A stretch of 64,000 nt of DNA from Acidimicrobiales bacterium. GTDB lineage: Bacteria; Actinomycetota; Acidimicrobiia; Acidimicrobiales; JBBSGY01. Position 1 is the first letter of the stretch; the number at the start of each line of letters is the position of its first letter. The notes under the pieces are model-generated. The model was not told the origin of the DNA. It saw only the letters and a list, made by a program, of their open reading frames with translations, and made no database searches. This document shows, piece after piece, positions 8,830-39,950 of the stretch. The translations under genes and the position numbers were made by a program. The DNA is taken from the NCBI GenBank assembly GCA_044220495.1, contig JBGAQY010000002.1:88966-152965 (forward strand), written 5' to 3'.

Positions 8830-8894
8830 TTACCCGACAGACTAGAGGCTTTGGTGCGCCAACAACGGCCCAATGCGTTGATTAGGGTCTTGTC

Positions 8895-14172: not shown

Positions 14173-14208
14173 AACCTGCACGACTTAGGGAGTTACTAGA
14201 AGTCGTTC

Positions 14209-14493: not shown

Positions 14494-14629
14494 GAAAACG
14501 TCCCTTCAAAAGGTAAGTGTCAGGACGGTCCCCCCGTCCAAAAATCCCTGGGTCAAACGACCGGGTGAAAACCGAGGGTGGCGAACTTCTGAGGACTTGG
14601 CAAGGGTTCGAGGCGAGAAATATTTTTCC

Positions 14630-14659
14630 TAGACAAGAATCATGATACGTAGGCATACT
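14630..14659 (+). promoter_or_regulatory. Candidate sigma-70-like promoter for the toxin operon, inside the 204-bp divergent intergenic region
   Basis: TAGACA (14630-14635), an 18-nt spacer, then CATACT (14654-14659). GGAG lies 7 nt before the GTG at 14698. This is a pattern match only. Confidence 0.2.
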
Positions 14660-14697
14660 CGGCTTCAGGCCTATTTCCCGCCTTTTGGAGCCTTTGC

Positions 14698-17275: not shown

Positions 17276-17281
17276 CATTCG

Positions 17282-18028
17282 CTAGTCAGCGTCGTTGAGC
17301 ACACTTTCGAGCCCAGTTGTCACACCTGGGGCAAGCGAGTCAAGAGACTTCGCCGCCAGCAGCGCGCCGGGCATGAACGACGACCGATCGAAGCTGTCAT
17401 GACGAAGCGTGAGCGTCTGTCCTGTGGCGCCAAAAATTACCTCTTCGTGCGCCAACAATCCCGGCAGGCGAACGGAGTGAATGTGAATGCCGTTTTGCTC
17501 AGCACCACGCGCGCCTTCAAGTGAAACGTGTTCGGTGGCGTCGGGGGCCCAGGGCTCTGTGCGGTGCTTCGAAATTTGCTCAGCCGTGAGTCGAGCGGTG
17601 CCCGACGGTGCGTCTTTCTTCTTCTCGTGATGAAGTTCGACGATCTCGACGGCGTCGAAGTATCGCGCGGCCATGCCGGCAAAGCGCATCAACAACACAG
17701 CACCGATCGAAAAATTCGGAACCAAAAAACAGCGCAAGTTCGCGACGCGAAACGCCGTATCGAATTGCTTGACTTCAGCGTCGGAGAAACCAGTGGTGCC
17801 AACAACAGCGTTGATGTTGTTGTCAGCCAACCAAAGCAGGTTGGCCGCAGCCGCTTCGTGATTGGTGACATCGATCACCAAGTCGATCGAACGACCCAAC
17901 AGTGACTCCAACGAATCAGCCGAACCTATCCTCGACACGAGCTCGAGCGACTCGTCAGACTGCACGGCGGCGCTGATGGCTGAGCCCATTCGTCCGTATG
18001 CACCTACAACTGCTACGCGCTTCATCAA
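17282..18028 (-). CDS. dapB: 4-hydroxy-tetrahydrodipicolinate reductase
   Basis: 248 aa. N-terminal Rossmann motif VAVVGAYGRMG, an internal ELHHEKKKDAPSGTA motif, and typical DapB length. Confidence 0.9.
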   Translation of the reverse strand: MMKRVAVVGAYGRMGSAISAAVQSDESLELVSRIGSADSLESLLGRSIDLVIDVTNHEAAAANLLWLADNNINAVVGTTGFSDAEVKQFDTAFRVANLRCFLVPNFSIGAVLLMRFAGMAARYFDAVEIVELHHEKKKDAPSGTARLTAEQISKHRTEPWAPDATEHVSLEGARGAEQNGIHIHSVRLPGLLAHEEVIFGATGQTLTLRHDSFDRSSFMPGALLAAKSLDSLAPGVTTGLESVLNDAD

Positions 18029-24317: not shown

Positions 24318-24752
24318 TCAAATGTCTTTGTGGGTGACTGCGTCGATCTCTTCGAGGTCGGGTTGATCGACCGGCTCAGGAACGGTGCGCAACAGCGTCT
24401 CTATCTTTTGCCCTTCGAGCACGCCTGGGTCGGGAACGAAACGCAACAGCGGAGTGCGCTTCATTCGCACGCTCTTGCCAATCGCGCCTTGCATAGGAAC
24501 GCGAAGTTCGTCGAGAGCAATCACAACCTCGTCAAGCGTTGCCGCCGTACCCAGCGCGCTGAAGAACACCGTTGCGTGACGTAAGTCTGACTCTGTCTCA
24601 ACGCCAGTGACGGTCACGAGTTCGAGGCGCGGGTCTTCGTCGGCACTGCGCTCTAGTACTTCGGCAATGACTTCTCTAAGCGTCTCGTTGATGCGAGCGG
24701 TACGCGGGTAGCGCGACTGCGTAGCCCAGCGACGCGAGTTGTCTCTAGTCAT
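24318..24752 (-). CDS. rbfA: Ribosome-binding factor A
   Basis: RINETLREVIAEVLE...DPRLELVTVTGVETESDLRHATVFF. Sits next to truB, as expected. Confidence 0.9.
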   Translation of the reverse strand: MTRDNSRRWATQSRYPRTARINETLREVIAEVLERSADEDPRLELVTVTGVETESDLRHATVFFSALGTAATLDEVVIALDELRVPMQGAIGKSVRMKRTPLLRFVPDPGVLEGQKIETLLRTVPEPVDQPDLEEIDAVTHKDI

Positions 24753-24826: not shown

Positions 24827-25684
24827 TCAAGAGACGGTTGAGGGCTCTTCGTGCAGTGGTGCGTTCTCGTCGACTTCAGGCACGACTTCACCGCGAGCGG
24901 CACGCTTGATCGCTCGCCAGAAACCCGCGCGCGACGCGTACTTCGTGTCGCGATCGAGAACGTTCTCACCCAACAAGCGTTGCGTTGTGATCAGCAACTG
25001 CACGTCGAGTTCCTTGGGAATGCGCGGTGCCATCTGCGCCAGTTCCATCAACTCTTCTTGGCTGGAGCGACCGGCCCACGACAAAGCGAACTGTTCGCCC
25101 GCTGCTTCTCCGTCGGCGGCCGTGTCAGCAAGTTCCATTTCAGGGGTCACTGGCGCAAGCGAGATGTACTGCTCCCAAAACTCTTTCTTCAACACGATGT
25201 GATCATCAGCTTCGCGAATCATGGTGCCTGACTGATTGCGTCCGTTGACCGCCTCGACGCCAATCACTGTCACTTGCACACCAAGGTCTTGCGCGCCTAG
25301 CAATCCGTCGAGCAGGTCGTCGTCGCCACCGAGCAGGTACATGCTGGCAACCGCGCGCTCGCGAGCGAGATTCAACATGTCGCGGTAGATCAGCGAGTCG
25401 ACACCCTTTTGTTGCCCACGACTCAGGCGGCCCAGTCTTACTTTCACGCCAGTGAGATCAGCAATGCGCAACTGCTCAAAAGTTGGCACGGCATCGGTCG
25501 ACGCGTCATACCAATAAGTACGCAATAGCGGAAGGTCGGCGTCGTCTTCAACCATGCTGGCAATTTCACTGAGCATGCCGGCGTAATCGCATTGCAGAAG
25601 GGCTCGGTTCTTGGTGCCGCAAACCAACTTGCCGGCCTCGGCAAGCAAGTGCCCAGCGTCGATCAAAATCGTGCAGCGGTCCAA
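24827..25684 (-). CDS. NYN/LabA-like (DUF88) domain protein with an uncharacterised C-terminal half
   Basis: The N-terminal half reads ILIDAGHLL...YWYDAS...VRLGRL...QKGVDSLIYRDML...YLLGGDDDLLDGLLGAQDLGVQVTVIG. This fits a PIN-like NYN fold with Asp clusters. The C-terminal roughly 110 aa have no recognisable family. Confidence 0.65.
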   Translation of the reverse strand: MDRCTILIDAGHLLAEAGKLVCGTKNRALLQCDYAGMLSEIASMVEDDADLPLLRTYWYDASTDAVPTFEQLRIADLTGVKVRLGRLSRGQQKGVDSLIYRDMLNLARERAVASMYLLGGDDDLLDGLLGAQDLGVQVTVIGVEAVNGRNQSGTMIREADDHIVLKKEFWEQYISLAPVTPEMELADTAADGEAAGEQFALSWAGRSSQEELMELAQMAPRIPKELDVQLLITTQRLLGENVLDRDTKYASRAGFWRAIKRAARGEVVPEVDENAPLHEEPSTVS

Positions 25685-25782
25685 GACAAAATCCCCCTAA
25701 ATCTGTTGGCGACACCGTAGTCGTTGGTCGCCCATTTGGCTCGGAGTATCCATCGACCAGCGAGGATTTATTCTTTAGAGCC

Positions 25783-26376
25783 TCATTGAACCGGGGAGAA
25801 ACGCTGCTCGCTTGCGCGACCGCCTAGACCTACTCGACGCTCGACTCGTCGAAACACTCTCCAACAGAGCGCAAGCCAAACCGCTCCGACGATCCATCCA
25901 CCCAGAACATCTGTCGGCCAATGAACACCGAGATACACCCTCGACACGCCAGCGCCCAGACTCACGAGCGCAACTGCAGCTGTGGCCGCCGGGACCGATC
26001 TAACGACGCGCCACCGCAACAACATGAGTGCCGTCAGTCCGTAAGCAACGACGGCCTTCATGGCGTGACCCGAGGGAAATGCAAACCCGCCCGCTTGCAC
26101 TAGGAAATCAGCAGAATCAGGACGTGCCCGCGCGAACAACAACTTCAAGCATGTGTTAACAACCTGCGCGCTCGATGCTGCCAGCAACAAGAAAGCGCCA
26201 TCTAGGAAACGACGTTTGGTCAACGCATAAACGATCAACGCTGCGATGACGACTGTAGTTACAAGTCCGCCCGCCAGATTGGTCAAAACTCGAAACCCCT
26301 CCGTCAGCCACGCAACGCGATGTGAGATCACCCACTGATGAATCTCCGAGTCGAAAGCCTGCACTGCTTCAATCAT
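25783..26376 (-). CDS. PAP2-family phosphatase (undecaprenyl-diphosphate / lipid phosphatase type)
   Basis: Acid-phosphatase motifs KLLFARARP, PSGHAM and SRVYLGVHWPTDVLGG, on a polytopic protein. Confidence 0.85.
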   Translation of the reverse strand: MIEAVQAFDSEIHQWVISHRVAWLTEGFRVLTNLAGGLVTTVVIAALIVYALTKRRFLDGAFLLLAASSAQVVNTCLKLLFARARPDSADFLVQAGGFAFPSGHAMKAVVAYGLTALMLLRWRVVRSVPAATAAVALVSLGAGVSRVYLGVHWPTDVLGGWIVGAVWLALCWRVFRRVERRVGLGGRASEQRFSPVQ

Positions 26377-27046
26377 GAGAGGTCGACCCTTGCACGTCTA
26401 GTAACGGCGAAACAGGAGTAGGGCGCTCGTGGTTCCGGTGCACGACATGTCGAAGCCCAATCAGCACAACCACGAAAAGCAGGAGTAAGAAACTTGCTCG
26501 TCCGAGCGCGTGTTCAACACGGTGATAGGTGTCGCCCAACAAGAAGCCGAGCATCACGAATCCGACGGCCCAACACGTACCACCAAGTACGTTCCAAAAA
26601 AGGAACTTCCGATAAGGAACGCGAGCCGTGCCGGCCGATGCTGGCACCAAGGCGCGCAAGATAGCCGTGAATCGCCCGAAGAAAACCGCAGGGGCACTCC
26701 TGCGATGTACGAAGGCTTCGGCTTGCCTCCAACGCTGTTCGCCAACCAGTTGGCCCAACCGCGTTGCCTTCAGGCGATGGCCGTATCGCGCGCCAACCTC
26801 ATAGCCAACAGAGTCACCGATGATTGCTCCGGCAATCGCCAACAACAAGACAACGGCGAGGTTGGCGTGATGCTGCGAAGCGAGTACTCCGCCAAAGATG
26901 ATCGCCGTTTCTCCTGGAATCACAAAGCCGGCAAACACTGAAGCTTCGAGCGCTGGCAGCGCAAACACTGCTGCATAAGCCAACTGGATAGGCACGACAC
27001 TGAGCGTGTGGTCGATGACGTTGCTGAGACTCATGAAGCAGATCAT
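26369..27046 (-). CDS. DedA family membrane protein
   Basis: Contains FAGFVIPGETAIIFGGVLA and GRFTAILRALVPASAG, both DedA/VTT signatures. Its 3' end overlaps the PAP2 start by 8 nt. Confidence 0.85.
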   Translation of the reverse strand: MICFMSLSNVIDHTLSVVPIQLAYAAVFALPALEASVFAGFVIPGETAIIFGGVLASQHHANLAVVLLLAIAGAIIGDSVGYEVGARYGHRLKATRLGQLVGEQRWRQAEAFVHRRSAPAVFFGRFTAILRALVPASAGTARVPYRKFLFWNVLGGTCWAVGFVMLGFLLGDTYHRVEHALGRASFLLLLFVVVLIGLRHVVHRNHERPTPVSPLLDVQGSTSHD

Positions 27047-27150
27047 CTCTGTCTTGAACTGAATGCCACCTGAAGCGCCACTGTGCCTTAAGCGTTGGTT
27101 CAGTGAGCAAAGTCGATGCTGTTGATAGTCCAGTCATCCGACTGGACTAG

Positions 27151-27579
27151 ATGTGGAGCATGAACATGAAAGTCAAGACGAATCGCAAGACGCTGGGTAC
27201 AGCGGCGCTGCTTTTTGGCCTCGTGATTGGTGGGGCGGGCATCAGCGCGGCAGCAACAGGCAACCTGCCTTCAGGAAAGGAAAGTAACGATGGCCCAGAG
27301 CAGACCTACGTGTCGTCAGTAAAGGCCGACAAAGGATCCAGCCTTGACGGGCTTGCCAAGTTGTCAGCGGACCAAGCAGCAACGGCCGCTAGTTCTATCG
27401 GTGGCACAGCAGGAACTGCCGTACTGGAAAACGAAGACGGCAACGTTGTGTACGTAGTCGAAGTGACAAAGACATCAGGTGAGAAGGTCGATGTTGCGAT
27501 CGACGCCGGCAACGGCGCTGTGCTCGGACAAGAGGCAGGAGACAACGAGACCAACGACGGTCCCGATGGACAGAACTAA
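27151..27579 (+). CDS. Secreted PepSY-domain protein
   Basis: Signal or TM segment LGTAALLFGLVIGGAGISAAA. The PepSY-like core is GTAVLENEDGNVVYVVEVTKTSGEKVDVAIDAGNGAVL. Confidence 0.7.
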   Translation: MWSMNMKVKTNRKTLGTAALLFGLVIGGAGISAAATGNLPSGKESNDGPEQTYVSSVKADKGSSLDGLAKLSADQAATAASSIGGTAGTAVLENEDGNVVYVVEVTKTSGEKVDVAIDAGNGAVLGQEAGDNETNDGPDGQN

Positions 27580-27622
27580 GCCAGCAGAACCTCGGGCGTG
27601 ATCAACTACATATTCCAATCCA

Positions 27623-28717
27623 TCAACAAGGCAATCCGGCTTTCTCGCCTGGTTGCCTTGTTGTCTTTGACGGTTGCACAGTTTGAAAAAGTTCTCGCTC
27701 GACCGCTGGCGTGCTCGGCAGCAGATTGCACGCGAAGCCGAACAACAACGGAGCCCAGAAGTCGAACAGGCGAAAACTCATCGTGATGCTCATAGCTAGC
27801 TCGTGTTGAACCCCAAAGCCCACAAGAATTGCTGCAAGCGATGCTTCGGTGGCTCCGAGACCGCCCGGCAAGGGACCTATATGCGACGTCAAGATCGACA
27901 ACACATAGGCAACAAGCAACTGCGCGACAGACAGGTGAGCGCCGAAGCCGTAGACGACCACAGCAAGGGTCGTCAGCCCGAGTAGCTTCCCGCCGACTGA
28001 CGTAAGCAATAAGCGCAACGCTGCAACGGGCTCGTGCCTCATCCACGTGATTGCACGAGTGAGCTCGGCGGTGACGATCGCTCTATCGGCTCGCGCTATG
28101 CGCTTGAGTCGTCGACGGAACAAACGCTCGATTGATTCGATTGCGTTCACAACCCTCATGGTGCTTTGGTGGCGCCATACGGCCAAGCCCAACGCACCAA
28201 CCACCACCATGGCGTACACACTCGCCACTGACATCGCTAACAACATGCCCCCGGTCAACGTCTGTGTAGCCAAACCAATTAACAACGTCGCGAGGATGGC
28301 GACACAAAGAGAGATTGTTTCGTCAACACGCACCGACACGTACGCGGCGACGACCGCGATAGCTTCGTGCCCGCGGCTTTTCGCAAAACGTAAATGACGC
28401 ACTAGACCTGCTGCCCCTCCGCTCTTGATTGCCTTTGTCGCTGCGAAGGACGCCGACGTGACCGGTATGAGCGCCAAGACACTCGCTCGCACACCCACAG
28501 ACCGGTACGCGGCAACCGATTGAACCGAGCGCAAGACGATGCCCGCCGCAGCCAGAACGACACCACCCGCCAACACCGGTGGTTGAGCCCACGCCACGGC
28601 CCATGCGGCGAGGAACTGCTTGCGCTCGATCACTACGAATGTTGTTACCGCCAGAGCTACCGCAAGGTTGACATAGCTGGGCGCGCTTAGGCGCTTGCGT
28701 AAGTTGCTATTTCCCAT
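27623..28717 (-). CDS. Flippase-like membrane protein (lysylphosphatidylglycerol-synthase TM-region / UPF0104 family)
   Basis: 364 aa and polytopic. The characteristic C-terminal motif is HIGPLPGGLGATEASLAAILVGFGV. Confidence 0.65.
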   Translation of the reverse strand: MGNSNLRKRLSAPSYVNLAVALAVTTFVVIERKQFLAAWAVAWAQPPVLAGGVVLAAAGIVLRSVQSVAAYRSVGVRASVLALIPVTSASFAATKAIKSGGAAGLVRHLRFAKSRGHEAIAVVAAYVSVRVDETISLCVAILATLLIGLATQTLTGGMLLAMSVASVYAMVVVGALGLAVWRHQSTMRVVNAIESIERLFRRRLKRIARADRAIVTAELTRAITWMRHEPVAALRLLLTSVGGKLLGLTTLAVVVYGFGAHLSVAQLLVAYVLSILTSHIGPLPGGLGATEASLAAILVGFGVQHELAMSITMSFRLFDFWAPLLFGFACNLLPSTPAVERELFQTVQPSKTTRQPGEKAGLPC

Positions 28718-28825
28718 GACCCAAGAATTCGTCGTCGAACCTGACGACAGTCTGAAAGCCTCTGCCAGCGTTCAGCCGCCGTTCAGGATCTAAGTGGCAG
28801 ACTTCGAGCGAGCCATGGAGATGTC

Positions 28826-29506
28826 ATGCGAGTACTCCTTGTAGAGGATGAGCCCAAGATCGTTGCTGCGCTTCGACGCGGCCTTGAAACAGAAGGGTTC
28901 GTTGTCGACGTCTCAAATAACGGCGACGACGGCCTCGAAATGGCAACACACAACGACTACGACGTGATTGTGCTCGACATCATGCTGCCGGGCATGAACG
29001 GCTATCTGATCTGCCGGACTCTTCGCGACAATCAGATCTGGACCCCGATACTCATGCTTACCGCCAAGGACGGCGAGTACGACCAGGCGGAAGCACTTGA
29101 TACCGGAGCCGATGACTACCTCACAAAGCCGTTCTCGTTCGTGGTGCTTCTCGCTCGCATTCGAGCGCTCATAAGGCGAAGCGGTCAAGGCGAGCCGGTC
29201 AGTAAATACACCGCCGGCGACCTGTCGCTCGATCCGCTTTCACATCGGTGCGCTCGAGGAAGTGTGCCGATCGACCTGACCTCGCGCGAGTTTGCGGTTC
29301 TGGAGTTCATGATGAGACGCGTGGATACGGTCGTGACTAAAACCGAGATACTCGACAACGTGTGGGACTTCGCCTTTGACGGTGATGTCAATATCGTCGA
29401 GGTTTACATCCGACATCTGCGCAAGAAAATTGACGAGCCATTTGACAAGAAGGCGATCGAGACAGTCCGCGGCGTCGGCTATCGAATTGCTAGAACCGGC
29501 GGATGA
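28826..29506 (+). CDS. OmpR/PhoB-family response regulator
   Basis: Receiver domain MRVLLVEDEPKI...DVIVLDIMLPGMNG...LTAKD. The winged-helix output domain is LTSREFAVLEFMMRR...VEVYIRHLRKKID...IETVRGVGYR. Confidence 0.93.
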   Translation: MRVLLVEDEPKIVAALRRGLETEGFVVDVSNNGDDGLEMATHNDYDVIVLDIMLPGMNGYLICRTLRDNQIWTPILMLTAKDGEYDQAEALDTGADDYLTKPFSFVVLLARIRALIRRSGQGEPVSKYTAGDLSLDPLSHRCARGSVPIDLTSREFAVLEFMMRRVDTVVTKTEILDNVWDFAFDGDVNIVEVYIRHLRKKIDEPFDKKAIETVRGVGYRIARTGG

Positions 29507-30882
29507 AGAAGCGTCTCTTCAACTCGGTTCGCTTTCGAACGACATTGGCAGCGACGGTCGCTGTCGCTGTCGCCCTTACCGTGAGTGCCTTCGGCGTGGT
29601 GCTCATCCAGCGTCACACACTCACGAACGGCATTCAGACCACGGCGCGCGAACAAGCCGAAAGCATTGCGCTCAGCATCGGTCGCGGCGACGCCAACATC
29701 ACACTTCCTGTGCAATCCAACGAAGACAGCATCACTCAGGTTGTCGACGCATCGAGTGGGGCCGTCGTTGCCGGCTCTGTGGCAGCACCCGACGAACCGG
29801 TAAGCAAAATGCGCCCTGCCCCGGGGGTATTTGCACACCAATCCGTTGAGCACTTCGGAACAGAAGGTCAGTCAGATTTTTTGATCGTTGCGTATGGCGC
29901 CGCTGGCCCAAACGGCAACTACGTCATTTTGATTGGCGACAGTCTCGAATCAGTGACCAACGCAACGGTTGTGCTGATTGCGCTATTTGGCATAGCGGTT
30001 CCCGCTCTCATTGTCTTCGTGGGGATCGTAACCTGGACGGTGAGCGGCAAGGCGCTGCGGCCGGTGCAAGAAATCCGCACCCAAGTCGAGCGCATTGAGT
30101 CAACTGATCTGAGTCAGCGCGTGCCCGAGCCCGAAGCCCAAGACGAAATTGGTCAACTGGCGCGAACCATGAATCTCATGCTTGCGCGACTCGAAGCATC
30201 AACCGACAAGCAGAGGCGCTTTGTGGCTGACGCCAGCCATGAACTTCGCAGTCCCCTTGCGGGCATACAGGCTCGCCTCGAGGTTGATTTGGCCTATCCC
30301 GACGGCGCCGATTGGCGAACCACCGGAAAGGATGTGCTGGACGAGACGCACCGCCTTGCTCGCTTGGTTGAAGACTTGCTGACGCTGGCGCGCCTCGACG
30401 AGAACAGCCGCGCATTGCCGGCTTTCATCGCAGTAGACCTTGACGAAGTTGTTCTGGCCGAGACCGCGCAACTGAAAGCGTTGTCGATCAACACGGTCGA
30501 CACATCGCGCGTGTCAGGTGCACAAGTTCGCGGAAATCGGGACGCCCTTCGCCGAGTGGTCCGCAACCTCCTAGACAACGCAGATCGCCACGCCACAAGC
30601 ACCGTGTCGATTGCGCTTGAAGAAAACGACTCTGAGATAGTGCTTACGATTACTGACGACGGACCTGGAATCCCGCTTGACAAACAAGCAGCAATCTTCG
30701 AGCGATTCACGCGTCTCGACGAGGGCCGCACTCGCGATGCCGGTGGTACAGGCCTCGGCCTTGCCATCGTGCGGGAAATTGCTACTGCACACGGTGCAGT
30801 CGTTACCGTTGCCAACACGCCCGGGGCTGCGTTTACCATTACCTTCCCCGTGCCTACGGCACTCGCTCCAGCCGTCATCTAG
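29503..30882 (+). CDS. Sensor histidine kinase (2 TM, HAMP, HisKA, HATPase_c)
   Basis: ATGA overlap with the response regulator gene. The H-box is FVADASHELRSPLAGI, the N-box is LLDNADRHA, and the G-boxes are DDGPGIP and GGTGLGLAIV. Confidence 0.92.
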   Translation: MKKRLFNSVRFRTTLAATVAVAVALTVSAFGVVLIQRHTLTNGIQTTAREQAESIALSIGRGDANITLPVQSNEDSITQVVDASSGAVVAGSVAAPDEPVSKMRPAPGVFAHQSVEHFGTEGQSDFLIVAYGAAGPNGNYVILIGDSLESVTNATVVLIALFGIAVPALIVFVGIVTWTVSGKALRPVQEIRTQVERIESTDLSQRVPEPEAQDEIGQLARTMNLMLARLEASTDKQRRFVADASHELRSPLAGIQARLEVDLAYPDGADWRTTGKDVLDETHRLARLVEDLLTLARLDENSRALPAFIAVDLDEVVLAETAQLKALSINTVDTSRVSGAQVRGNRDALRRVVRNLLDNADRHATSTVSIALEENDSEIVLTITDDGPGIPLDKQAAIFERFTRLDEGRTRDAGGTGLGLAIVREIATAHGAVVTVANTPGAAFTITFPVPTALAPAVI

Positions 30883-31727
30883 TCGACAACGCTCAAGGCG
30901 ATCTGGTCTCGCTTCGACCGAGTGAGATACATCACAAGACCCAAGATCGTGATCAGGAACAGAGCGCTTGTGCCGGTCGTCGTCAGACCGAGGCCACCAT
31001 CGGCGGAAGGCTGCGACAGCAAGTCGCCAAGCGATGCGCCCAGGGGACGGGTGAGCACGTAGGCAACCCAGAACGTTGCGACCGCTCGTGTTGCTTTCTG
31101 GGCCGGGCGCCCAGGTTGCTTCTGCCAGACATAGTGAACGACAACCACAAGACCAATTAGCAGGGCATAGATGGCGGCAGACGGCCCGAAGCCGAGGGCC
31201 AGACCTTCGGCCGTCCAGTCTCCGGCTGCCGTCCCAAGAGCAAAGGTGAACAAGATCGCCAGCCAGTAATAAGCCTCTCGCTTTGTACTCCGGATGCTGT
31301 GAATGGAAAGTGTCTTCTCGCTCCGATACCAAGCCACGAATACGCCGACTAGCAACACGGCAAACACTCCCGTGCTGAGTGCCAATGGAACGCCAAATCG
31401 GTCTGTGAGGTTGTCTGTGATCAAGGTGCCAGCGACGCTTATCAGCGTGACGGCAAGCCAGTAGAGCCTGGGAACGTAGCGATCCGCCTTGAACTGAAAG
31501 AAGAGTGCAACAGCGAGTGCACCCACCATCACAATCGTTGTGAGAGTGAGGCCAAATCCGAGATCGACATTGAGGAAGTCAGCAAAGGTTTCCCCAACCG
31601 TGGTCGCGAGAATTTTGATGATCCAGAAATAGATCGTTACCTCAGGAACTTTGCTCAACATCTGTCGGGCGCCCGTGCGACTGTTGCCGTCTACTTCGCT
31701 TTGATCTGTCATGGGCACAACGTTCAC
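30879..31727 (-). CDS. Membrane protein with four DUF347-type repeats (COG4705-like)
   Basis: Four internal repeats are visible, each a TM pair with a conserved W and G..D: IYFWIIKILATTVGETFADFL, LYWLAVTLISVAGTLITDNL, AYYWLAILFTFALGTAAGDW, ATFWVAYVLTRPLGASLGDLL. Convergent with the HK gene, and the two stop codons share a CTAG. Confidence 0.6.
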   Translation of the reverse strand: MNVVPMTDQSEVDGNSRTGARQMLSKVPEVTIYFWIIKILATTVGETFADFLNVDLGFGLTLTTIVMVGALAVALFFQFKADRYVPRLYWLAVTLISVAGTLITDNLTDRFGVPLALSTGVFAVLLVGVFVAWYRSEKTLSIHSIRSTKREAYYWLAILFTFALGTAAGDWTAEGLALGFGPSAAIYALLIGLVVVVHYVWQKQPGRPAQKATRAVATFWVAYVLTRPLGASLGDLLSQPSADGGLGLTTTGTSALFLITILGLVMYLTRSKRDQIALSVVD

Positions 31728-31778
31728 AGATTGCGGCTGAACGCAGACTGAAAACGCGCCCTAAAGACTTGGGCCGAT

Positions 31779-32423
31779 CTACGGCTGCGGCAGATCGGCC
31801 ACGCGCCGAGCGCGAATGATCTCGACCACGGCTGGCATCAGAGACAGGGCAACAATTCCAAGAATCACAGGTGTAAGCACGTGTTCGAGACCAGGGAACC
31901 GCTTGCCGAGCACATATCCGAGCAACGAGATCACGACCGCCCACGCGCAGGCACCAACAAAGTTGTAGGTGACAAAAGTCCGATAACGCATACGCGACAC
32001 ACCGGCGACTACAGGCGTAAAAGTGCGCACGACCGGGACAAAACGCGCCAACACGATGGCTCGACCACCGTGGCGTTCGAAAAACAGCCGACTGCGCTCG
32101 AGGTACTCGCGGCGATACAGCCGACCGTCGGCGCGCTTGTAGAGCGTCGGGCCGACCCGATGTCCTATGCCATAACCAACTTGATCGCCAGCAAAAGCAG
32201 CAACAAACACGACAGCTGCGAGCACCATCGGGTGCGGCGAGCCGGCTAGCGCTGCCACTAGCCCGGCACTAAACAACAGTGAGTCACCAGGGAGAAAGAA
32301 ACCGAAAAGCAAACCGGATTCGGCAAAAATCATCCCACCTATCACCAGCAAGAATATGACTTGCCCATGGCCGAGCAGCGGCGCCAGGTCTGGGTGAAGT
32401 AACCACTGCAATGCTGATCTCAC
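31779..32423 (-). CDS. DedA family membrane protein (second copy)
   Basis: Contains FGFFLPGDSLLFSAGLVAA and ARFVPVVRTFTPVVAGVSRM. Confidence 0.85.
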   Translation of the reverse strand: MRSALQWLLHPDLAPLLGHGQVIFLLVIGGMIFAESGLLFGFFLPGDSLLFSAGLVAALAGSPHPMVLAAVVFVAAFAGDQVGYGIGHRVGPTLYKRADGRLYRREYLERSRLFFERHGGRAIVLARFVPVVRTFTPVVAGVSRMRYRTFVTYNFVGACAWAVVISLLGYVLGKRFPGLEHVLTPVILGIVALSLMPAVVEIIRARRVADLPQP

Positions 32424-32637
32424 TAACTACTCCGATACCTTGCGCGCGCATCTGCGCCCGAACCACTGCAACGTAGAAGGTCGTGCCTGAACGCCGCCTG
32501 AAGGCCAAGGCACCGCTGTCGAAGTTCAAGCACCTCACTCCGCGGTGCCCGTCGCGATCAGTATGTCCAACCGTTTCACGTCGCTTACACGAGTCCGGGT
32601 GTCAAGTCTTTGCAATGTGAGCGGGCAGTATTAGGGC

Positions 32638-33153
32638 ATGGCGATCACGGTTCACTCCCCCAGCCCCGCCGACGCTGCCGAGTTCGTTGAAGCAGTCCGT
32701 CGCAGCCGCGATCTGCATCGACCGTGGGTGCGTCCCGCTAGCACCGTTGAGCTTTTCGACGCCTATCTCGAACGAGCGGCTCGCGATGATCAGCGCTCCT
32801 TTTTGATTCGCGATGCGTCGTCGGGACAATTGGCGGGTTTCATCAATGCCAACAACATCGTGTTCGGTGCGCTGCAGTCTGCGTATCTTGGCTACGCCGC
32901 CTTCGAGGGCACGCAGCGCAAGGGCCTAATGACGGCGGGGCTTCGGGCGGCCATCACCAGTCTTTTCGTTGACGATCGCTTGCATCGCGTCGAGGCGAAC
33001 ATCCAGCCGGGCAACGTAGCGTCGCTCGCGTTGGTACGGCGACTGGGCTTTAGCAAAGAAGGCTTCTCGCCTAAGTACCTATTCATCGAAGGCGAGTGGA
33101 GAGACCACGAGCGTTGGGCTCTGACAGCCGAAAGCTGGCACCCGACCAACTAA
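32638..33153 (+). CDS. GNAT N-acetyltransferase (RimJ/RimL-like)
   Basis: 171 aa. Contains GYAAFEGTQRKGLMTAGLRAAITSLF...LHRVEANIQPGNVASLALVRRLGFSKEG. Confidence 0.8.
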   Translation: MAITVHSPSPADAAEFVEAVRRSRDLHRPWVRPASTVELFDAYLERAARDDQRSFLIRDASSGQLAGFINANNIVFGALQSAYLGYAAFEGTQRKGLMTAGLRAAITSLFVDDRLHRVEANIQPGNVASLALVRRLGFSKEGFSPKYLFIEGEWRDHERWALTAESWHPTN

Positions 33154-33269
33154 TTGGGATAGCTCGCCCGTCTTCTACCCGCCATTACTCGCAGCGAACG
33201 ACTCACGCCCAGCCTGTTTTGACACTTTCAGCCGTTGTGAACGCCGACAGTGCCACTGATAATTGAAAT

Positions 33270-34418
33270 GTGGACAAATCTCCCGCCCAGGCGTATGAGC
33301 TGACGAACAGGCTGCACCCCGCAGTTACGCAGACACTTCTGACCTACCTGCCGTTTACCGAGAATGAAGCTCTCGCAACCTCCGTTTACAAGTTCACTCC
33401 CTCTGCACTACGAAGCCAGGCGGCAGAACATCGGAACCGAGCCCGAGAGTATTGGGCTACCAATCCCACCAACTACGGCCAGCAGTCACTTGAGGCCGAT
33501 GGACACGCCCGTCGCTTCAGTGCCGAGGCGGAGAGCTTGACGCATGCGACGACCTTTTTGAAAGAGAAGGTCCGTCCACTGCTCGAGGATCGACCACGCT
33601 TTGCATCTCCAAACGGAGAAGCCCTACGCGATCGCGTCATCACGATCATCGACAATGAGATCAATCGACTCGTGCCACCAAACCCGTTTGGCGAACAACG
33701 CGATTCCGTTGGTATTCGTGTTCTGCGCGATACCCGCCAAGCACTTGTCGACGCCACTCACAATCGACAACCCAAGCTCAAGGCTCAGCCGCCACCAGTC
33801 ACTCGGCCGACACAAATCGCCAACAACTATCCCCTGTCGTTCTACACACCGCATGAATATGTCCGCCCCGGCGGCGCGCCACAGATGAGTCAACCCGGCA
33901 GCGACGACTGGTCAACGCCTCCGCAAAACACAACTCCACTGTGGGTGCAGGAACTGCAAGCACAGCAACTAGCAAAACGCGAAGCAGCAATGCGTGGTGG
34001 ACTCGAGAACCCAGACGTCATCAGTGATGTCACGCCACGATCAGCGCGTCGCTACGGAAACCAGATCGCTTTGCCAATCGTCGATCGAGCAATTTTCGAC
34101 GCCGAACAACTGTTTACGCACTTTGACCTCGGCGCAAGAAATCAAGCCCAGGCAGCACAAGACATGAGCCGAAACACCGCCGTGTTTCAAATGGCCACCG
34201 AACAAGGTCAGATGGCTTACGCAAAAGAGCAAGCGGCCGACGACATCGCCAACGCTTGGGAAACGGGCTTTCGAAACAACGGCGAGCTTGCCTTCTACGA
34301 GCAAGTAACCCCAGAGCAGCTCGACGCGATGATCCAAGAGACCATCGAATCCGCCACGCAAACCCGGGCCTACCAACAACTGATCGCCAACAAATCTCGA
34401 ACCGTCGGCGACGGCTAA
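33270..34418 (+). CDS. Hypothetical protein, 382 aa, no family recognised
   Basis: Long ORF with a GTG start and no competing long ORF on either strand. It looks helical and Q/A/E-rich, with no TM or signal peptide and no obvious SD. The coding call rests on length only. Confidence 0.5.
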   Translation: MDKSPAQAYELTNRLHPAVTQTLLTYLPFTENEALATSVYKFTPSALRSQAAEHRNRAREYWATNPTNYGQQSLEADGHARRFSAEAESLTHATTFLKEKVRPLLEDRPRFASPNGEALRDRVITIIDNEINRLVPPNPFGEQRDSVGIRVLRDTRQALVDATHNRQPKLKAQPPPVTRPTQIANNYPLSFYTPHEYVRPGGAPQMSQPGSDDWSTPPQNTTPLWVQELQAQQLAKREAAMRGGLENPDVISDVTPRSARRYGNQIALPIVDRAIFDAEQLFTHFDLGARNQAQAAQDMSRNTAVFQMATEQGQMAYAKEQAADDIANAWETGFRNNGELAFYEQVTPEQLDAMIQETIESATQTRAYQQLIANKSRTVGDG

Positions 34419-34431
34419 TTGCAGGTGACGC

Positions 34432-34710
34432 GTGGAGCGTCTAGATCAGGTTGTCTGCGGCAAGGACGCTGGCAAAGGACTCCGACCCGGTGGCGGCCGT
34501 GATCTCGGCCACCACCTACGCGAAAAGCCCAAAAGCAGCCCGAATTTCGCCAGAATGTGGGCGTTTCGCGCAGGTGAAAGCGATGTGGCGGGACCGCAGG
34601 CGAGAACGCCGCCCTTCGCGAGTGGAGCGTCTAGATCAGGTTGTCTGTGGCAAGGCCGCAGGTGAGGACGCTGGCAAAGGCCAGCGACGAGCCGAGAACG
34701 CCGCCACAGG
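34432..34710. repeat. Imperfect tandem duplication (period about 190 bp), second unit shortened
   Basis: gtggagcgtctagatcaggttgtctg[c/t]ggcaagg occurs at 34432-34466 and 34622-34656. gacgctggcaaagg occurs at 34465-34478 and 34667-34680. g[c/g]cgagaacgccgcc occurs at about 34599 and 34691. Unit 2 lacks the roughly 120-bp segment that carries the hairpin element. Confidence 0.85.
34513..34576. repeat. Dispersed palindromic element, copy A (19-bp arms, 26-nt spacer)
   Basis: Left arm cacctacgcgaaaagccca (34513-34531) and right arm tgggcgtttcgcgcaggtg (34558-34576), with 2 mismatches. Same family as 50769-50832. Confidence 0.85.
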
Positions 34711-34718
34711 CAAGCTGA

Positions 34719-37652
34719 TCAGACGCGAGCGATTTCGCGTTCGTCGAAGGTTTCTATTACATCCCCAGGCTTGAGGTCTTGGAAGTCGCTGAGCCCGATA
34801 CCGCACTCGAAGCCCGACTGAACTTCTTTTGCGTCGTCTTTGAAGCGGCGCAGCGAAGTGATGCTGCCCTTCCAAATAACGACACCCTCGCGGAGGAAAC
34901 GCACTTTGGAGCCGCGAGTAATGACGCCGTTGGTCACGTAACAACCAGCAATGGCACCGATCTTTGGCACACGGAAGATCTCGCGCACTTCGGCATCGCC
35001 AGTGACGACTTCTTCGAACTCTGGCGCCAACAAACCGAGCATGGCCTTCTGCATGTCTTCGATAACGCGGTAGATGATTTCGTAGGTGCGGATCTGCACA
35101 CCCTCACGCTCAGCCGACTCACGAGCCTTGCGGTCAGGACGCACATTGAAACCAATAATCGTTGCGCCCGACGCCGATGCAAGATCGACATCAGCCTGCG
35201 TGATTCCACCAACTGAGCGCTGCACGAACGCAACTTTGACCTCGTCGCGTTCGAGCTTGCGCAAGCTTTCGGTGAGCGCTTCGAGTGAACCTTGTACGTC
35301 GGCTCGCAGGATTAGACCAAGCGTTGCCGTCTCGCCGCGTTGAATCTGGTCGAAGAGGTCTTCGAGCTTCGCTCCGCCACCAGCGAGAGCAACGTGTGCG
35401 GTCGTGGTGCGCTGTCCGGCGATGTTGCTGACTCGCGCACGATGATGACGAGTCTCTCCGATCGTGCGCGCGGTGCGCTCGTCGGGCGTTGCTCGCAATT
35501 CATCACCAGCGTTAGGCACATCTGACAAGCCGAGCACCAGCACCGGCATCGACGGAGGTGCTTCTTTGACGTTGTCGCCGTTGTGATCAATGAGCGCACG
35601 AACCTTGCCCCAGGCAGCGCCGGCAACAACAGGATCGCCAACGCGCAACGTGCCGCGCTCAACAACAACGGTCGCCACAGGTCCGCGACCAACATCGAGG
35701 TTGCCTTCGAGAACGAAACCACGAGCACGACCTTCAGGATTGGCGGTCAGCTCTTCGAGGTCGGCAACCAACAACAATTGCTCGAGCAAGTCGTCGATGC
35801 CCGTGTTTTGCAACGCAGACACCGGCACCATGATCGTGTCGCCACCCCACGCCTCAGGCACCAAACCCTCTTCAGAGAGTTGCTGCATGATGCGGTCGGT
35901 GTTGGCGTCAGGACGGTCGATCTTGTTGATAGCTACAACAATCGGAACCTCAGCTGCCTTCGCGTGCGCGATGGCCTCTTTGGTCTGCGGCATAACACCA
36001 TCGTCAGCAGCAACGACGAGTACGACGATGTCGGTTACGTCAGCACCGCGTGCACGCATGGCCGTGAATGCTTCGTGACCTGGCGTGTCAATGAACGTGA
36101 TTTCGCGGTCGTCTTTGACGACTTGGTAAGCACCGATGTGTTGCGTAATACCGCCGGCCTCACCCGACACAACGTTGCTGGAACGGATGCGATCGAGCAA
36201 AGAAGTCTTGCCATGGTCGACGTGACCCATCACCGTGATGACAGGCGGGCGTGGACGTTGCGTTTCTTCGTCATCGTCGTCATCGTCGGCGAAATACTTC
36301 AAAGCCATCTCGGCTTCTTTTTCTTCACCTGGATCAACCAAACGAACGCTCGCGCCGATCTCGGCTGCGAAGAGTTCGATCGCGTCGTCTGACAACGTCA
36401 TCGTCGCCGTCACCATTTCGCCCTGCTGCAACAAGAAGCGGACTACGTCGGCAACAGAACGGTTGAGTTTGGGGGCAAGGTCTTGCGCGGTTGAACCGCG
36501 CTCGACAATGACTTCGCCTTCGGGAACCGGAGCCGTCGACGGAACGTATTGCATGTTCTGGATTGGCTCGAGCTCTTCGATATTGCGCCGACGCTTCTTC
36601 TTGCGTCCGCCCGGGGGTCGACCACGACCACCAAAGCCACCGCCTGGACCAGGACGACCGCCGCCGCCAAAAGCACCACCGGGGCCACCGCCACCAGGAC
36701 CAGGACGACCACCGCCGCCATAGCCACCACCGCCGGGGCCACCTGGACGGCCACCAGGACCACCCATGCCGGGCGCACCAGTGCGCTGACCGCCATAGCC
36801 ACCGCCACCGCCAGCTGGACGGCCGGAAGGAGGACCGCCAGGACGGCCACCACCAGGAGCTGGACGCGCGCCAGCACCACCAGGACCACCGGGACGCTGT
36901 TGGAACGGACGGCCACCCGAACCGGGAGGAGGCGGAATCGGCTTACCACTCATTGAGCGCGGCGGACCGGGAGGAGGCGGAATCGGCTTACCCGAAGCCG
37001 AGCGAGCAGGACGTGGCGGCGGAGGCGGCGGAGTTTTCGCGCCTGGACCGCTCGGACCACTTGAACCACCCGGGCCACCCGCCGGCGCGGGACCACGCCC
37101 CTCAGGACGAGGAGGAGCTGGCGCTGCCTTGTGCGGAGGCGTTGGAGCGGCCGGAGGGCCAGTTGGAGAAGTAGCGGGAGAAGCAGGCGGAGTCGCCTTG
37201 GCCGCCGGCGCCACAGGAGTTTCAGTCGCAGGCGTCGCCGCGGGTGCGGCGGGAGTCGCAGGAGAAGGGGCGGCCGCTGCCGGCCGAGCAGCAGGGCGCG
37301 GCGGGGTTGCCAAGGGTGAATCGCTGGCGGGGCGCGAGCTCTGCGTGCTGCGAACAGTTGACGAGCGACTTACCTCGCCCCCACCCGCTGAGCTCGAAGA
37401 CGCACCAGTAGAGGGCGCGGCGGCAGTCTTCTTGGCGGCAGCTTTCTTGGCAGGCGCAGGCTCTTCGGGGGCGACCTCTCGCCGCATGCCTTCTTGGTCG
37501 GCCTTTCGGCGAACACGGTCTGCCTGTGCGTCTTCAATGCTCGACGACGGGCTCTTGACCCCAATACCGAGCGCGATCGCGACATCGAGAGCCTCTTTGC
37601 TCGTGAGGCCCAGCTCACGAGCGAGCTCGTATACGCGAATCTTCTTTGCCAA
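34719..37652 (-). CDS. infB: Translation initiation factor IF-2
   Basis: The GTPase domain has GHVDHGKTSLLD, DTPGHEAF and NKID, preceded by a long P/G/A-rich N-terminus. I prefer the TTG at 37652, which gives MAKKIRVYELARELG with GAAGGGG 9 nt upstream, over the track start at 37661. Confidence 0.97.
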   Translation of the reverse strand: MAKKIRVYELARELGLTSKEALDVAIALGIGVKSPSSSIEDAQADRVRRKADQEGMRREVAPEEPAPAKKAAAKKTAAAPSTGASSSSAGGGEVSRSSTVRSTQSSRPASDSPLATPPRPAARPAAAAPSPATPAAPAATPATETPVAPAAKATPPASPATSPTGPPAAPTPPHKAAPAPPRPEGRGPAPAGGPGGSSGPSGPGAKTPPPPPPRPARSASGKPIPPPPGPPRSMSGKPIPPPPGSGGRPFQQRPGGPGGAGARPAPGGGRPGGPPSGRPAGGGGGYGGQRTGAPGMGGPGGRPGGPGGGGYGGGGRPGPGGGGPGGAFGGGGRPGPGGGFGGRGRPPGGRKKKRRRNIEELEPIQNMQYVPSTAPVPEGEVIVERGSTAQDLAPKLNRSVADVVRFLLQQGEMVTATMTLSDDAIELFAAEIGASVRLVDPGEEKEAEMALKYFADDDDDDEETQRPRPPVITVMGHVDHGKTSLLDRIRSSNVVSGEAGGITQHIGAYQVVKDDREITFIDTPGHEAFTAMRARGADVTDIVVLVVAADDGVMPQTKEAIAHAKAAEVPIVVAINKIDRPDANTDRIMQQLSEEGLVPEAWGGDTIMVPVSALQNTGIDDLLEQLLLVADLEELTANPEGRARGFVLEGNLDVGRGPVATVVVERGTLRVGDPVVAGAAWGKVRALIDHNGDNVKEAPPSMPVLVLGLSDVPNAGDELRATPDERTARTIGETRHHRARVSNIAGQRTTTAHVALAGGGAKLEDLFDQIQRGETATLGLILRADVQGSLEALTESLRKLERDEVKVAFVQRSVGGITQADVDLASASGATIIGFNVRPDRKARESAEREGVQIRTYEIIYRVIEDMQKAMLGLLAPEFEEVVTGDAEVREIFRVPKIGAIAGCYVTNGVITRGSKVRFLREGVVIWKGSITSLRRFKDDAKEVQSGFECGIGLSDFQDLKPGDVIETFDEREIARV

Positions 37653-37790
37653 GTCTTGCAACCCCTTCAGCGGCTCTCGCCTTTAAAAAAACAAACGGTG
37701 CCAGGCACCAGGACGCGTTGGCCAATGGCCACGGCCCGAGCCATCTTCCCACATCCCTGGTCAGCCCGGGCACTAACGCATTTGCGCTGG

Positions 37791-38060: not shown

Positions 38061-39305
38061 TTACTTCTCCTCAGCGCCGACCTCAGCCGGCTCATCGGTG
38101 GAAACGACGTCGTCATCAGCAGGCGCGGCGTCAGCAGCCTCGGCGTCGGCCGGAGCATCACTCGCGGCTGCATCGGTGGCTGCGTCAGCGTCTTCGGGTG
38201 TGCCGGTCTGCCACTCTTCGGCGGAGATTGCGTCGCCGCCGTCGGCTGGCTTCCACACCATCTCGCCGTTTTCGTCTTCGACCCACTCGCCTTCGGCCCA
38301 CTCGACACCGATGCCGGCTTCTTCGTCAGCGACCATTTGCTCACTCTTGATGTCGATGCGCCACCCGGTGAGGCGCGCAGCAAGACGCGCGTTCTGCCCT
38401 TCTTTACCAATGGCCGAGCTAAGTGAGAAGTCGTTGACAATCACAGTCGCCGTGCCGGTCTCTTCATCGAGGCGAACCTCTTTGGGCTTGGCCGGTGCCA
38501 TTGCTTCGCGCACGTAGTCGACGGGGTCGTCACGGAAGTAAACGATGTCGATCTTCTCGCCGTGCAACTCATTGCTGACCATGCGAACACGAGCTCCGCG
38601 CGCTCCGATGCAAGCACCGGCCGGATCAACATTGGAGTCGTTCGACCACACCGCCATCTTCGTGCGGTAGCCAGGTTCGCGCGCAATGGCTTTGATCTCG
38701 ACAACACCTGATTCGATTTCAGGCACTTCGAGTTGGAACAAACGCTTGAGCAAGCTCGGATGCGTGCGACTCACGATGATCTGCGGACCTTTAGCGGTCT
38801 TGCGAACCTCGACGATGTAAGCCTTGAGGCGGTCGCCGTTCTTGTAAATCTCGTGCGGAACTTGCTCAGCCTTGGGCAAAAGCGCTTCGACTTTGCCAAG
38901 GTCGAGCAGCGTGTAACGACCGTCGCTTTGCTGGACAATGCCCGTAACGATGTCGCCCTCGCGGCCCGCATAGTCTTTGTAGGACTGCTCGCGCACAAAG
39001 TCTTGAATCGATTGGAAGATGACTTGCTTCGCTTTTTGTGCAGCGATACGACCGAAGTCGGCAGGAGTGTCATCCCACTCGCGGATGACATTGCCGTCGT
39101 CATCGAGTTCTTGACCGATGACCCGAATTTCACCCGACACTTTGTCGATTTCAACAAGTGCCTCTTCAGCTGATGTCGGCATGCGCTTGTACGCGGTGAG
39201 AAGCGCGTTGGCCAGCGCGTCTAAGAGCACGTCGATCGAAACGCCCTTCTCGCGTCCCAAGTTCTCGAGTGCCTCGATGAAAGCCGGATTTGCGTTTGTC
39301 GTCAT
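38061..39305 (-). CDS. nusA: Transcription termination/antitermination factor NusA
   Basis: Has an S1 domain ([21 protein letters not shown]) and KH domains ([37 protein letters not shown]), followed by an acidic C-terminal tail. Confidence 0.97.
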
Positions 39306-39880
39306 CGGTTAGAGGCCTCTTTTTTAGTTGTAGTAGATGAGTCGTTCTTCGCAGCCTTGCCAGGCACATTGCCAGACAAGGACTTTTTGCGCGAACGCTT
39401 TGGTTCGGGTTGCGTCTGCTCGCCCCAGTGGAACACCGTGCGTGCTGCCTCGATGTCGGTGTACGCCAACCGGCGCGTCGTCGGATCGCTGTCGTTTGTC
39501 GCAACAGAAATGTCAATGCCACTGTCGTCAGCACCATCGAGTCGCGCTTCAAATCGTCGCGGTCCATCAACACCTGCTGCGACTTTGAGATTGACCTGCT
39601 CGCCGAGCTGCGCCTTGTAGTGCTCAGGCAAGCGCAGCTTGCGCTCAATGCCCGGGCTGCTGACTTCAAGCAGGTAGCGCGAATCGGGAAGCGGATCGTC
39701 TTCGTCGAGTGCTGTCGAAATGTCTTTCGACAGGTCGCCAACGGTGTCGACGTCGATGCCGCCAGGGCGGTCGACCATGATGCGCAGGATGCCTGACTCG
39801 TGCTCAACGTCATAGAGCTCGACACCAAAAGAGGCGACGATGGGCTCGACCAACGCACGTACTCGCTCGACTGCTTGCAT
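39302..39880 (-). CDS. rimP: Ribosome maturation factor RimP
   Basis: Contains LVEPIVASFGVELYDVE...LRIMVDRPGGIDVD and LEVSSPGIERKL. The ATG at 39880 lies 7 nt downstream of GGGAGGTG. The track start is the GTG at 39883. Confidence 0.9.
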   Translation of the reverse strand: MQAVERVRALVEPIVASFGVELYDVEHESGILRIMVDRPGGIDVDTVGDLSKDISTALDEDDPLPDSRYLLEVSSPGIERKLRLPEHYKAQLGEQVNLKVAAGVDGPRRFEARLDGADDSGIDISVATNDSDPTTRRLAYTDIEAARTVFHWGEQTQPEPKRSRKKSLSGNVPGKAAKNDSSTTTKKEASNR

Positions 39881-39950
39881 CACCGCTCACCTCCCGTTAG
39901 ATCTCGACGCTCCTCTTCGTTGAGCTCAGGCCCAGGTCAGCAAGGCCGGA

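Follow-up and report, generated by a model that had tools for sequence, protein, structure and literature searches.

The genes rimP-nusA-infB-rbfA-truB-rpsO-pnp form a single string in Escherichia coli, and the corresponding string of Bacillus subtilis carries ylxP (DUF503) between infB and rbfA. Integration hot spots and genomic islets are intergenic positions whose accessory gene content differs from strain to strain. The usual operator of the OmpR/PhoB family of regulators consists of two half-sites one helical turn apart. All three kinds of system bear on the locus described here, a 64 kb stretch of DNA (the window) from an uncultured Acidimicrobiia bacterium, in which ten genes separate infB from the next gene of the translation string, a NYN/LabA-like gene that is followed by rbfA. 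A preliminary description of this DNA had taken the infB-rbfA junction to be universally conserved, a view contradicted by a survey of more than 1800 genomes, in which a nusA-infB cassette was present in 877 and rbfA was found less often in such cassettes (441–494 occurrences, depending on the counting method; PMC9514032).

On balance, the joint between infB and the NYN gene is probably a permissive slot that has been filled independently in different lineages, and its filling in the window, about 9 kb with 10 genes, would be an OmpR-type regulon for undecaprenyl phosphate and envelope lipids. The locus map was made from the list of open reading frames (ORFs) and Pfam scans. The backbone genes lie on the minus strand in the order rimP (39302–39883), nusA (38061–39305), infB (34719–37661; IF-2, with Pfam matches to IF-2, GTP_EFTU and IF2_N), a gap, and then rbfA (24318–24752; Pfam RBFA), truB, ribF, rpsO and pnp, as in the related locus L009. 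The infB gene, at the upstream border of the slot, is 80–87% identical to the infB genes of relatives. The 11 ORFs counted earlier between the infB stop (34719) and the rbfA start (24752) were reproduced, and that part of the description of an 11-gene, ~10 kb accessory block holds. Its extent does not: the NYN gene at the downstream border (24827–25684, minus strand; Pfam NYN) lies between infB and rbfA in all relatives, so that the accessory segment, referred to below as the block, comprises 10 genes and ~9.0 kb (25685–34718).

Relatives of this locus are sparse, and were recovered through alignment of NYN at four genome loci and six metagenome loci only; those with names are metagenome-assembled genomes of Acidimicrobiia/Acidimicrobiales. 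A scan of the genome collection with rbfA found no relative, as rbfA is too divergent. Gene content, presence or absence among relatives, box distribution and composition were read directly from the DNA. The infB|NYN joint is compact (94–236 bp) in six of 12 lineages and filled with unrelated cargo (1.6–9 kb) in the other six, the window included, and this bears out the earlier proposal of an insertion hot spot. The compact spacings are 236 bp in L003, 94 bp in L019, 207 bp in L020, 177 bp in L007/L008, 130 bp in L009/L010 and 187 bp in L023. Besides the window (9.0 kb, 10 genes), the filled joints are those of L011 (3.9 kb, encoding a hypothetical protein, an ECF sigma factor and a DAO oxidoreductase), the ERZ1305449 contig (2.8 kb; HSP20, a luciferase-like protein and an FMN reductase), L024 (4.2 kb; an 85-aa protein and a 1193-aa beta-lactamase-domain protein), L025 (2.6 kb; an amylase-like protein) and L006 (1.6 kb). 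None of the window's 10 block genes was found at the corresponding locus in any of the 11 related lineages; the alignment with related genomes that had been proposed as a check thus gave a compact infB|NYN joint in six relatives and an 11-gene arrangement that is not common to them.

In a neighbour-joining tree of NYN, which is rough, being built from one protein and carrying no support values, the partner of each of the five filled lineages included has a compact joint (L003 for the window, L007 for ERZ1305449, L009 for L011, L020 for L024 and L023 for L025), which argues for five or more separate fillings; L006 is not in the tree, as its NYN is frameshifted. L020 and L024 are homologous up to the infB stop codon and again from 106 nt before NYN; in L024, 4.1 kb has taken the place of about 105 nt with the terminator hairpin, and there is no target duplication. 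From rseP to dapB the window is collinear with L009, from which it differs at the infB|NYN joint by the block alone. From this distribution we infer that the ancestral layout of the clade was rimP-nusA-infB | NYN-rbfA-truB-ribF-rpsO-pnp, and that the event in the window was an insertion. The reverse course, a ten-gene block that was ancestral at this position and was lost by the compact relatives, is very improbable. It would agree with the backbone-like composition of the block, and the closest sampled relatives are still so distant that the history is poorly resolved, but the six compact lineages are spread over the NYN tree from the nearest to the window (L003, L019) to the most distant (L009, L023), the five other filled lineages carry wholly unrelated genes with no block remnant, and neither a remnant of a block gene nor one of the regulatory boxes described below was seen in the compact spacers of relatives. 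The simplest cause of the recurrent filling would be a gap that is harmless to interrupt, rather than a specific recombination site, although the data fit either, and the filled slot is ordinary genome plasticity at a permissive site.

The NYN gene belongs to the conserved string and not to the cargo. The infB-NYN-rbfA order was seen in every related contig long enough to show it, and the 26 NYN orthologues are 70–84% identical, after which identity drops to 51% or less. Among relatives NYN is more conserved (73–83% identity) than rbfA (45–66%) or truB (51–71%); the best rbfA match, 73% identical, is on a 1-kb contig. The match of the protein to Pfam PF01936 scores 37.6 bits (cut-off 24.2), and an AlphaFold model of modest confidence (pLDDT 66) matches the LabA-like structure 2qip with a probability of 1.0 and a TM of 0.67 over the target. 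This structure was recovered by fold search only, and a PDB sequence search with a NYN profile gave no match. Aspartates D9, D96, D102 and D121 are invariant in 26 of 26 orthologues. The constant position between infB and rbfA, together with conservation above that of rbfA and truB, makes NYN a candidate RNA-processing or ribosome-maturation factor, nuclease-like by family. Its C-terminal helical domain is highly conserved (MAPRIPKELDVQLL...LDRDTKYAARAGFW), and the gene is also found at L003 1617–2453, L009 10001–10837 and L023 10001–10837. Distant homologues (~48% identical; Egibacteraceae, L013) do not adjoin rbfA.

The block encodes an OmpR-type response regulator (RR; 28826–29506, plus strand) and a HAMP-HisKA-HATPase kinase (HK; 29503–30882, plus strand) whose genes overlap by 4 nt. 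The two proteins carry Response_reg and Trans_reg_C, and HisKA and HATPase_c, respectively, all above Pfam gathering scores. The sequence TTCAG-N6-TTCAG occurs exactly four times in the 64 kb (0.14 expected), each time in a spacer of the block, and allowing one mismatch added two further boxes, both also in block spacers; the 54 kb outside the block contain none, even at one mismatch. All six boxes face the adjacent gene, 9–63 nt from its annotated start. Two of them lie in the divergent spacer between a DedA gene (DedA1, 26369–27046, minus strand; Pfam VTT_dom) and a gene for a PepSY-domain protein (27151–27579, plus strand; Pfam PepSY): box A (27059–27074, minus strand, exact) faces DedA1 and, beyond it, the PAP2 phosphatase gene (25783–26376, minus strand; Pfam PAP2), which overlaps DedA1 by 8 nt, and box A′ (27088–27103, plus strand, one mismatch) faces PepSY. 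Another two occupy the divergent spacer between RR and the gene for a 364-aa, flippase-like membrane protein consisting of an LPG_synthase_TM domain only (27623–28717, minus strand; Pfam LPG_synthase_TM), with box B′ (28741–28756, minus strand, one mismatch) facing the latter and box B (28771–28786, plus strand, exact) facing RR-HK, and these form an inverted pair (28741–28786). Box C (TTCAGTCTGCGTTCAG; 31737–31752, minus strand, exact) is 9–24 nt before the start of the gene for a DUF347 membrane protein with four repeats (30879–31727, minus strand; Pfam DUF347, E 2.6e-61), and box D (TTCAGGCGGCGTTCAG; 32487–32502, minus strand, exact) faces a second DedA gene (DedA2, 31779–32423, minus strand; a VTT domain membrane protein by Pfam VTT_dom), 63 nt before its start.

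Boxes whose half-sites are one helical turn apart, placed before six units with eight genes in all, argue for one self-regulated regulon, and we infer that eight of the 10 block genes make up such an OmpR-type regulon, with binding of the RR to the boxes predicted. The remaining two genes do not share the pattern: no box faces the gene for a GNAT acetyltransferase of the RimJ/RimL-like family (32638–33153, plus strand; Pfam Acetyltransf_3), and none lies upstream of an orphan ORF (33270–34418, plus strand). Homologous systems in L015 and L016 are 71–72% (RR) and 50–56% (HK) identical to that of the window. In L015, two boxes form an inverted pair just upstream of the RR gene, and the same inverted pair is found upstream of RR in L016, where seven exact boxes surround the homologous two-component system (4913–16915). 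One of these is in front of BacA (UppP), and others are near PAP2_3/GT87 (MptA-type glycosyltransferase) and PAP2 genes, a pattern suggesting that, in another organism, a regulator of this family controls a wider set of envelope genes. The other loci, 154 kb in all, hold one exact box. No description of the box sequence or of this Acidimicrobiia RR subfamily was found in the literature.

DedA proteins are undecaprenyl-phosphate (C55-P) flippases (PMC12893004, PMC11474028), and in Frankia three operons combining UppP and DUF347 are induced by lead, the role of DUF347 there being itself a proposal (PMC4531530). By their family matches, DedA1 and PAP2 of the block are a candidate pair of undecaprenyl-phosphate flippase and undecaprenyl-diphosphate phosphatase. 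The NCBIfam equivalog scores of the block proteins are every one below the cut-off. For the DedA proteins the best specific models are UptA/DedA; DedA1 and DedA2 reach the family-level VTT_dom and score 68 and 54 bits against the UptA model (cut-off 250), and DedA2 scores 175 bits against the NCBIfam DedA model PRK10847 (cut-off 236). The PAP2 domain scores 75 bits (Pfam), and the highest-scoring specific models for the protein are the undecaprenyl-diphosphatases SepP (52 bits, cut-off 250) and PRK11837 (38 bits, cut-off 229) and also PgpB, all below cut-off, so that the assignment is at family level and the substrate is not assignable. The GNAT protein scores 94.9 bits against the NCBIfam RimJ model (cut-off 190). 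The LPG_synthase_TM protein exceeds the cut-off for the TIGR00374 flippase-like domain (49.7 bits, cut-off 43.2); its identification as MprF was rejected, the protein having the TM domain only, no synthase domain, and a score of 36 bits against the MprF model (cut-off 600). The best HK homologue (63%) is followed by BacA, and BacA and two PAP2 genes also surround another of the homologous systems. On this evidence, the best-supported function for the block is that of a two-component regulon for the handling of undecaprenyl phosphate and envelope lipids, the trigger of which would be cell-wall stress or toxic metals.

The regulator pair itself raises a different functional possibility. The best NCBIfam models are heavy-metal ones, cztR_silR_copR (TIGR01387) for RR (253.1 bits) and cztS_silS_copS (TIGR01386) for HK (202.6 bits), and the lead-induced Frankia operons (PMC4531530) point the same way, so the block may serve a response to toxic metals of the lead, copper or zinc type, with HK sensing the metal, PAP2 releasing phosphate from undecaprenyl diphosphate to trap it outside, and DUF347 exporting it. 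Both scores, however, are below the curated cut-offs (279.2 and 292.55), no metal ATPase, CDF, CopC/D or metallochaperone was found in the block by Pfam, the role of DUF347 in Frankia is only proposed, and the presence of two DedA proteins and a flippase-like protein speaks for a role with lipids. A dedicated metal response is therefore rather unlikely, if still the most serious of the competitors; it concerns the functional part of the interpretation only.

In the preferred reading, infB would end in its own hairpin and NYN would have its own upstream region of ~100 nt, leaving the stretch between them as a permissive slot that different lineages fill independently with unrelated DNA. In the window, RR and HK would act through the boxes before their own operon, LPG_synthase_TM, PepSY, DedA1-PAP2, DedA2 and DUF347, and the regulon would most likely tune the recycling and flipping of undecaprenyl phosphate, and the envelope lipids at large, when toxic metals or cell-wall-active compounds stress the envelope. 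Two genes, GNAT and the orphan ORF, would be extra cargo outside the regulon. In this scheme, binding of the regulator to the boxes, the biochemistry assigned to the proteins, the direction of change at the joint and any effect on transcription are predictions from sequence.

The earlier remark that no integrase, tRNA or terminal repeats accompany the block stood up to Pfam, tRNA and flanking-repeat searches. None of the 11 ORFs has an integrase or recombinase domain (Pfam), no tRNA or tmRNA was found in the 64 kb, and direct or inverted repeats bracketing the block amount to short chance-level matches only; a transposon or att-site reading was rejected, there being no bracketing repeats beyond chance. 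The GC content is 0.55–0.60 both inside and outside the block, GC3 is 0.57–0.70 in the block and 0.59–0.71 in the backbone, and the codon scores are host-like. The preliminary description had named three findings that would count against an insertion, namely an arrangement shared by close relatives, backbone-like composition, and conserved read-through from infB into rbfA. Comparison of GC and codon usage with the flanks gave the second of these, a backbone-like block, and the other two were not found. A plasmid search with the whole block matched a short piece of the RR gene and nothing else. A defence-island reading was also rejected, with no PADLOC match and with cargo in relatives that is metabolic or regulatory.

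Measured against the usual signs of a genomic island, the block shows patchy presence at the same site and lacks an integrase, a tRNA or repeats, and deviant composition. A classical island, recently transferred on an integrative element that has since decayed, would account for a block present in one lineage only, and mobile elements do land nearby, since in another lineage an rve integrase, a Prim-Pol and a TrwC relaxase adjoin NYN. Such an origin is nevertheless improbable: GC, GC3 and codon scores are indistinguishable from the backbone, there is no integrase, tRNA, flanking direct or inverted repeat or plasmid match for the block, and the nearest named HK homologues are from Acidimicrobiia. 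Most likely the block was assembled or relocated within the lineage long ago, and not recently delivered by a mobile element.

The contiguity from the orphan ORF to truB is confirmed by two independent short-read assemblies from the same organism (L001 and L002; SRR28480390 and SRR28480386). If infB and the block had been wrongly joined in assembly at the 44-nt repeat that lies between them, the arrangement would be an artefact, and the short-read contigs do end before or inside that repeat, leaving the joint in the source contig only. This explanation is nonetheless hardly credible. In L001 and L002, NYN-rbfA-truB is immediately preceded by the block, at the place taken by infB in relatives, so that infB is separated from NYN whatever the repeat join; moreover, the 146 nt between the repeat copies are unique and the backbone is collinear on both sides. 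Where L001 (1–33) overlaps the window (34441–34472), it reads GCCACAG and the distal copy in the window GCCGCAG, a difference due to strain variation or else to an artefact of the assembly graph in the repeat.

The structured spacer 3′ of infB (34419–34718, minus strand), with direct and inverted repeats and a predicted fold, contains a 44-nt direct repeat with 91% identity (34429–34472 and 34619–34662) and several inverted repeats around it; the 26-nt repeat core occurs exactly twice in the window (0 expected). Over its first ~90 nt, counted from infB, the spacer is homologous to the infB-NYN spacer of L003, which is free of an insert and carries the motif (CCTGCGGCCTTGCCAC..ACAACCTGATCTAG) twice; the motif is absent from the other relatives. 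The infB-proximal copy pairs with the infB stop region (34703–34720 with 34634–34651), and in L003 the motif likewise pairs with the sequence around the infB stop codon. Three pairs of the consensus structure of the window and L003 are kept through compensatory changes on both sides, and the window spacer folds better than shuffled sequences (z −4.4 for the whole spacer; further z −3.7). The earlier suggestion that the repeats at 34.43–34.71 kb may be a scar fails on these grounds, and the repeats were rejected as an insertion scar, since L003 has the motif twice without the block and the motif pairs with the infB stop region. The ~90-nt structure, which spans 34625–34721 of the window (minus strand) and 1378–1470 of L003, could be a 3′-end stability or attenuation element. 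Alternatively, the 5′ arm could be taken up by the second copy of the motif, which is the pairing found in the minimum free energy (MFE) fold of the whole spacer. Rfam gave no family in the whole window, nor in the repeat region at a permissive threshold.

Strong hairpins directly follow infB in L007, L009, L020, L011 and L006 (z −2.2 to −7.3), some of them followed by T-runs, and a region of ~100 nt upstream of NYN is conserved. These features of relatives suggest that infB and NYN-rbfA were probably separate units before the insertion, and that their uncoupling predates the block; the claim that the insertion itself uncouples rbfA-truB from nusA-infB does not agree with them. A search for a common promoter motif upstream of NYN in 10 relatives made evident only the ribosome-binding site and a pairwise similarity of L020 and L024, and a scan of 24–35 kb with sigma-70 and terminator consensus sequences gave sites no more often than in shuffled sequence, so that consensus cannot place promoters in this organism. 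In the window, infB and the orphan ORF are convergent, and read-through from infB into rbfA is therefore no longer plausible. At the other edge of the block, the spacer between PAP2 and NYN (25685–25782, minus strand), in which homology to the NYN leader of relatives starts at ~25698, has no terminator-like structure (fold z −0.23), and read-through from DedA1-PAP2 into NYN-rbfA is possible. It is conceivable, though we give it little credence, that in this clade recombination is truly targeted to the stretch from the infB hairpin to the NYN leader, by a mechanism independent of any integrase close by, and that in the window the regulator-controlled DedA1-PAP2 promoter, unhindered by a terminator, reads into NYN-rbfA-truB and rewires their expression. 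If so, ribosome-maturation factors, including the predicted NYN nuclease, would become responsive to envelope stress.

Several points weigh against the interpretation of the block as an independently acquired, self-regulated envelope regulon. As the box was first recognised in the spacers of the block, its presence there is partly circular; its absence elsewhere in the window and its recurrence in L015 and L016 are independent of this circularity. Several boxes are only 9–24 nt from annotated starts, which fits repression or misplaced starts as well as activation. The enzyme assignments are all at family level, as no NCBIfam equivalog cut-off was reached, and a metal signal is possible in that the heavy-metal CztRS/SilRS/CopRS group is the best-scoring subfamily for RR and HK. 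The joint of infB, repeat and orphan ORF is spanned by the source contig only, L001 and L002 ending inside the repeat. Relatives are distant (rbfA 45–66%, DNA ~80% at best), too much so for the insertion to be dated or placed exactly, and the NYN tree represents a single protein without support values.

The orphan ORF (382 aa, no family, from the ORF list) has no homologue but itself among 1.84 billion representative proteins, and no significant match in Pfam, PDB-sequence or PADLOC searches; a weak match to EccC3 (E ~0.1) was dismissed as chance. The GC content by codon position is coding-like and the annotated frame is the best on codon usage, so it is probably a real, lineage-restricted gene. 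Promoter-like hexamers (TTGTGA-17-GATAAT, 33235–33270) end 7 nt before its GTG start and would fit a leaderless transcript, which is what the ORF possibly has.

Other joints of the string are interrupted as well. The NYN|rbfA joint is split in L007, L024 and the ERZ1305449 contig (31 kb). In the last of these, NYN is directly followed by an rve/HTH_38 integrase, a Prim-Pol, a TrwC relaxase and a glycogen-debranching-type gene, content that looks like an integrative mobilisable element, and in L007/L008 a debranching-type gene is at the same joint without mobility genes. The truB|ribF joint of L003 is interrupted by a kinase and a receiver (3947–6072), and ribF|rpsO by 4.2 kb in L011 (9359–13612) and by a glycosyltransferase in L006 (12252–13956). 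The window has a second segment that is not in L009, at ~9800–17300 between dapB and a hypothetical-protein/RNase J pair, which encodes a 1438-aa FtsK/SpoIIIE ATPase with an FHA-like (Yop-YscD_cpl) domain, a 576-aa calpain-family (Peptidase_C2) protein and two ORFs without a family.

Across this clade, the translation genes of the textbook 'conserved' string fall into separate units in a row, with a permissive gap that has been filled repeatedly, a point of use for the synteny-based annotation of uncultured Actinomycetota. For a two-component family of Acidimicrobiia that has not been studied, the block supplies a specific regulon prediction open to testing, with a box, six sites and a recurring link to undecaprenyl-phosphate enzymes, and a conserved NYN-domain gene inside a ribosome-maturation string is flagged as a candidate RNA-processing factor. 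An accessory islet in a gap of the core genome and an OmpR-type regulon are both known kinds of system, and current understanding is not overturned.

Compared with the strings of E. coli and B. subtilis, the order of rimP, nusA, infB, rbfA, truB, ribF, rpsO and pnp is the same. The clade differs by a NYN/LabA-like gene between infB and rbfA and by a separate hairpin 3′ of infB, and the window by 9 kb of unrelated genes between infB and NYN, some of them on the opposite strand. The joint resembles integration hot spots and islets in being one position between conserved core genes, with unrelated cargo in six of 12 lineages. It differs in that the window has no integrase, tRNA or att-like repeats, and in that the comparison is at the level of genus or family and not of strains, from which a turnover rate is not derivable.

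With OmpR/PhoB (pho-box type) regulons the block shares a receiver and winged-helix regulator, a HAMP-HisKA kinase, and 5-nt half-sites 11 nt apart before its own operon and five other units; unlike in those regulons, the box is known here as a sequence pattern alone, which does not tell activation from repression. The cargo differs from undecaprenyl-phosphate recycling modules in having no equivalog-level match and no Bce-type ABC transporter, and it adds a PepSY protein and an LPG_synthase_TM-only protein. Like the modules of C55-PP phosphatase and UptA type, and the UppP-DUF347 modules of Frankia, it has a PAP2 gene that overlaps a DedA gene, with a second DedA and DUF347 nearby, and, as in recycling modules, homologous regulators adjoin BacA and PAP2 genes.

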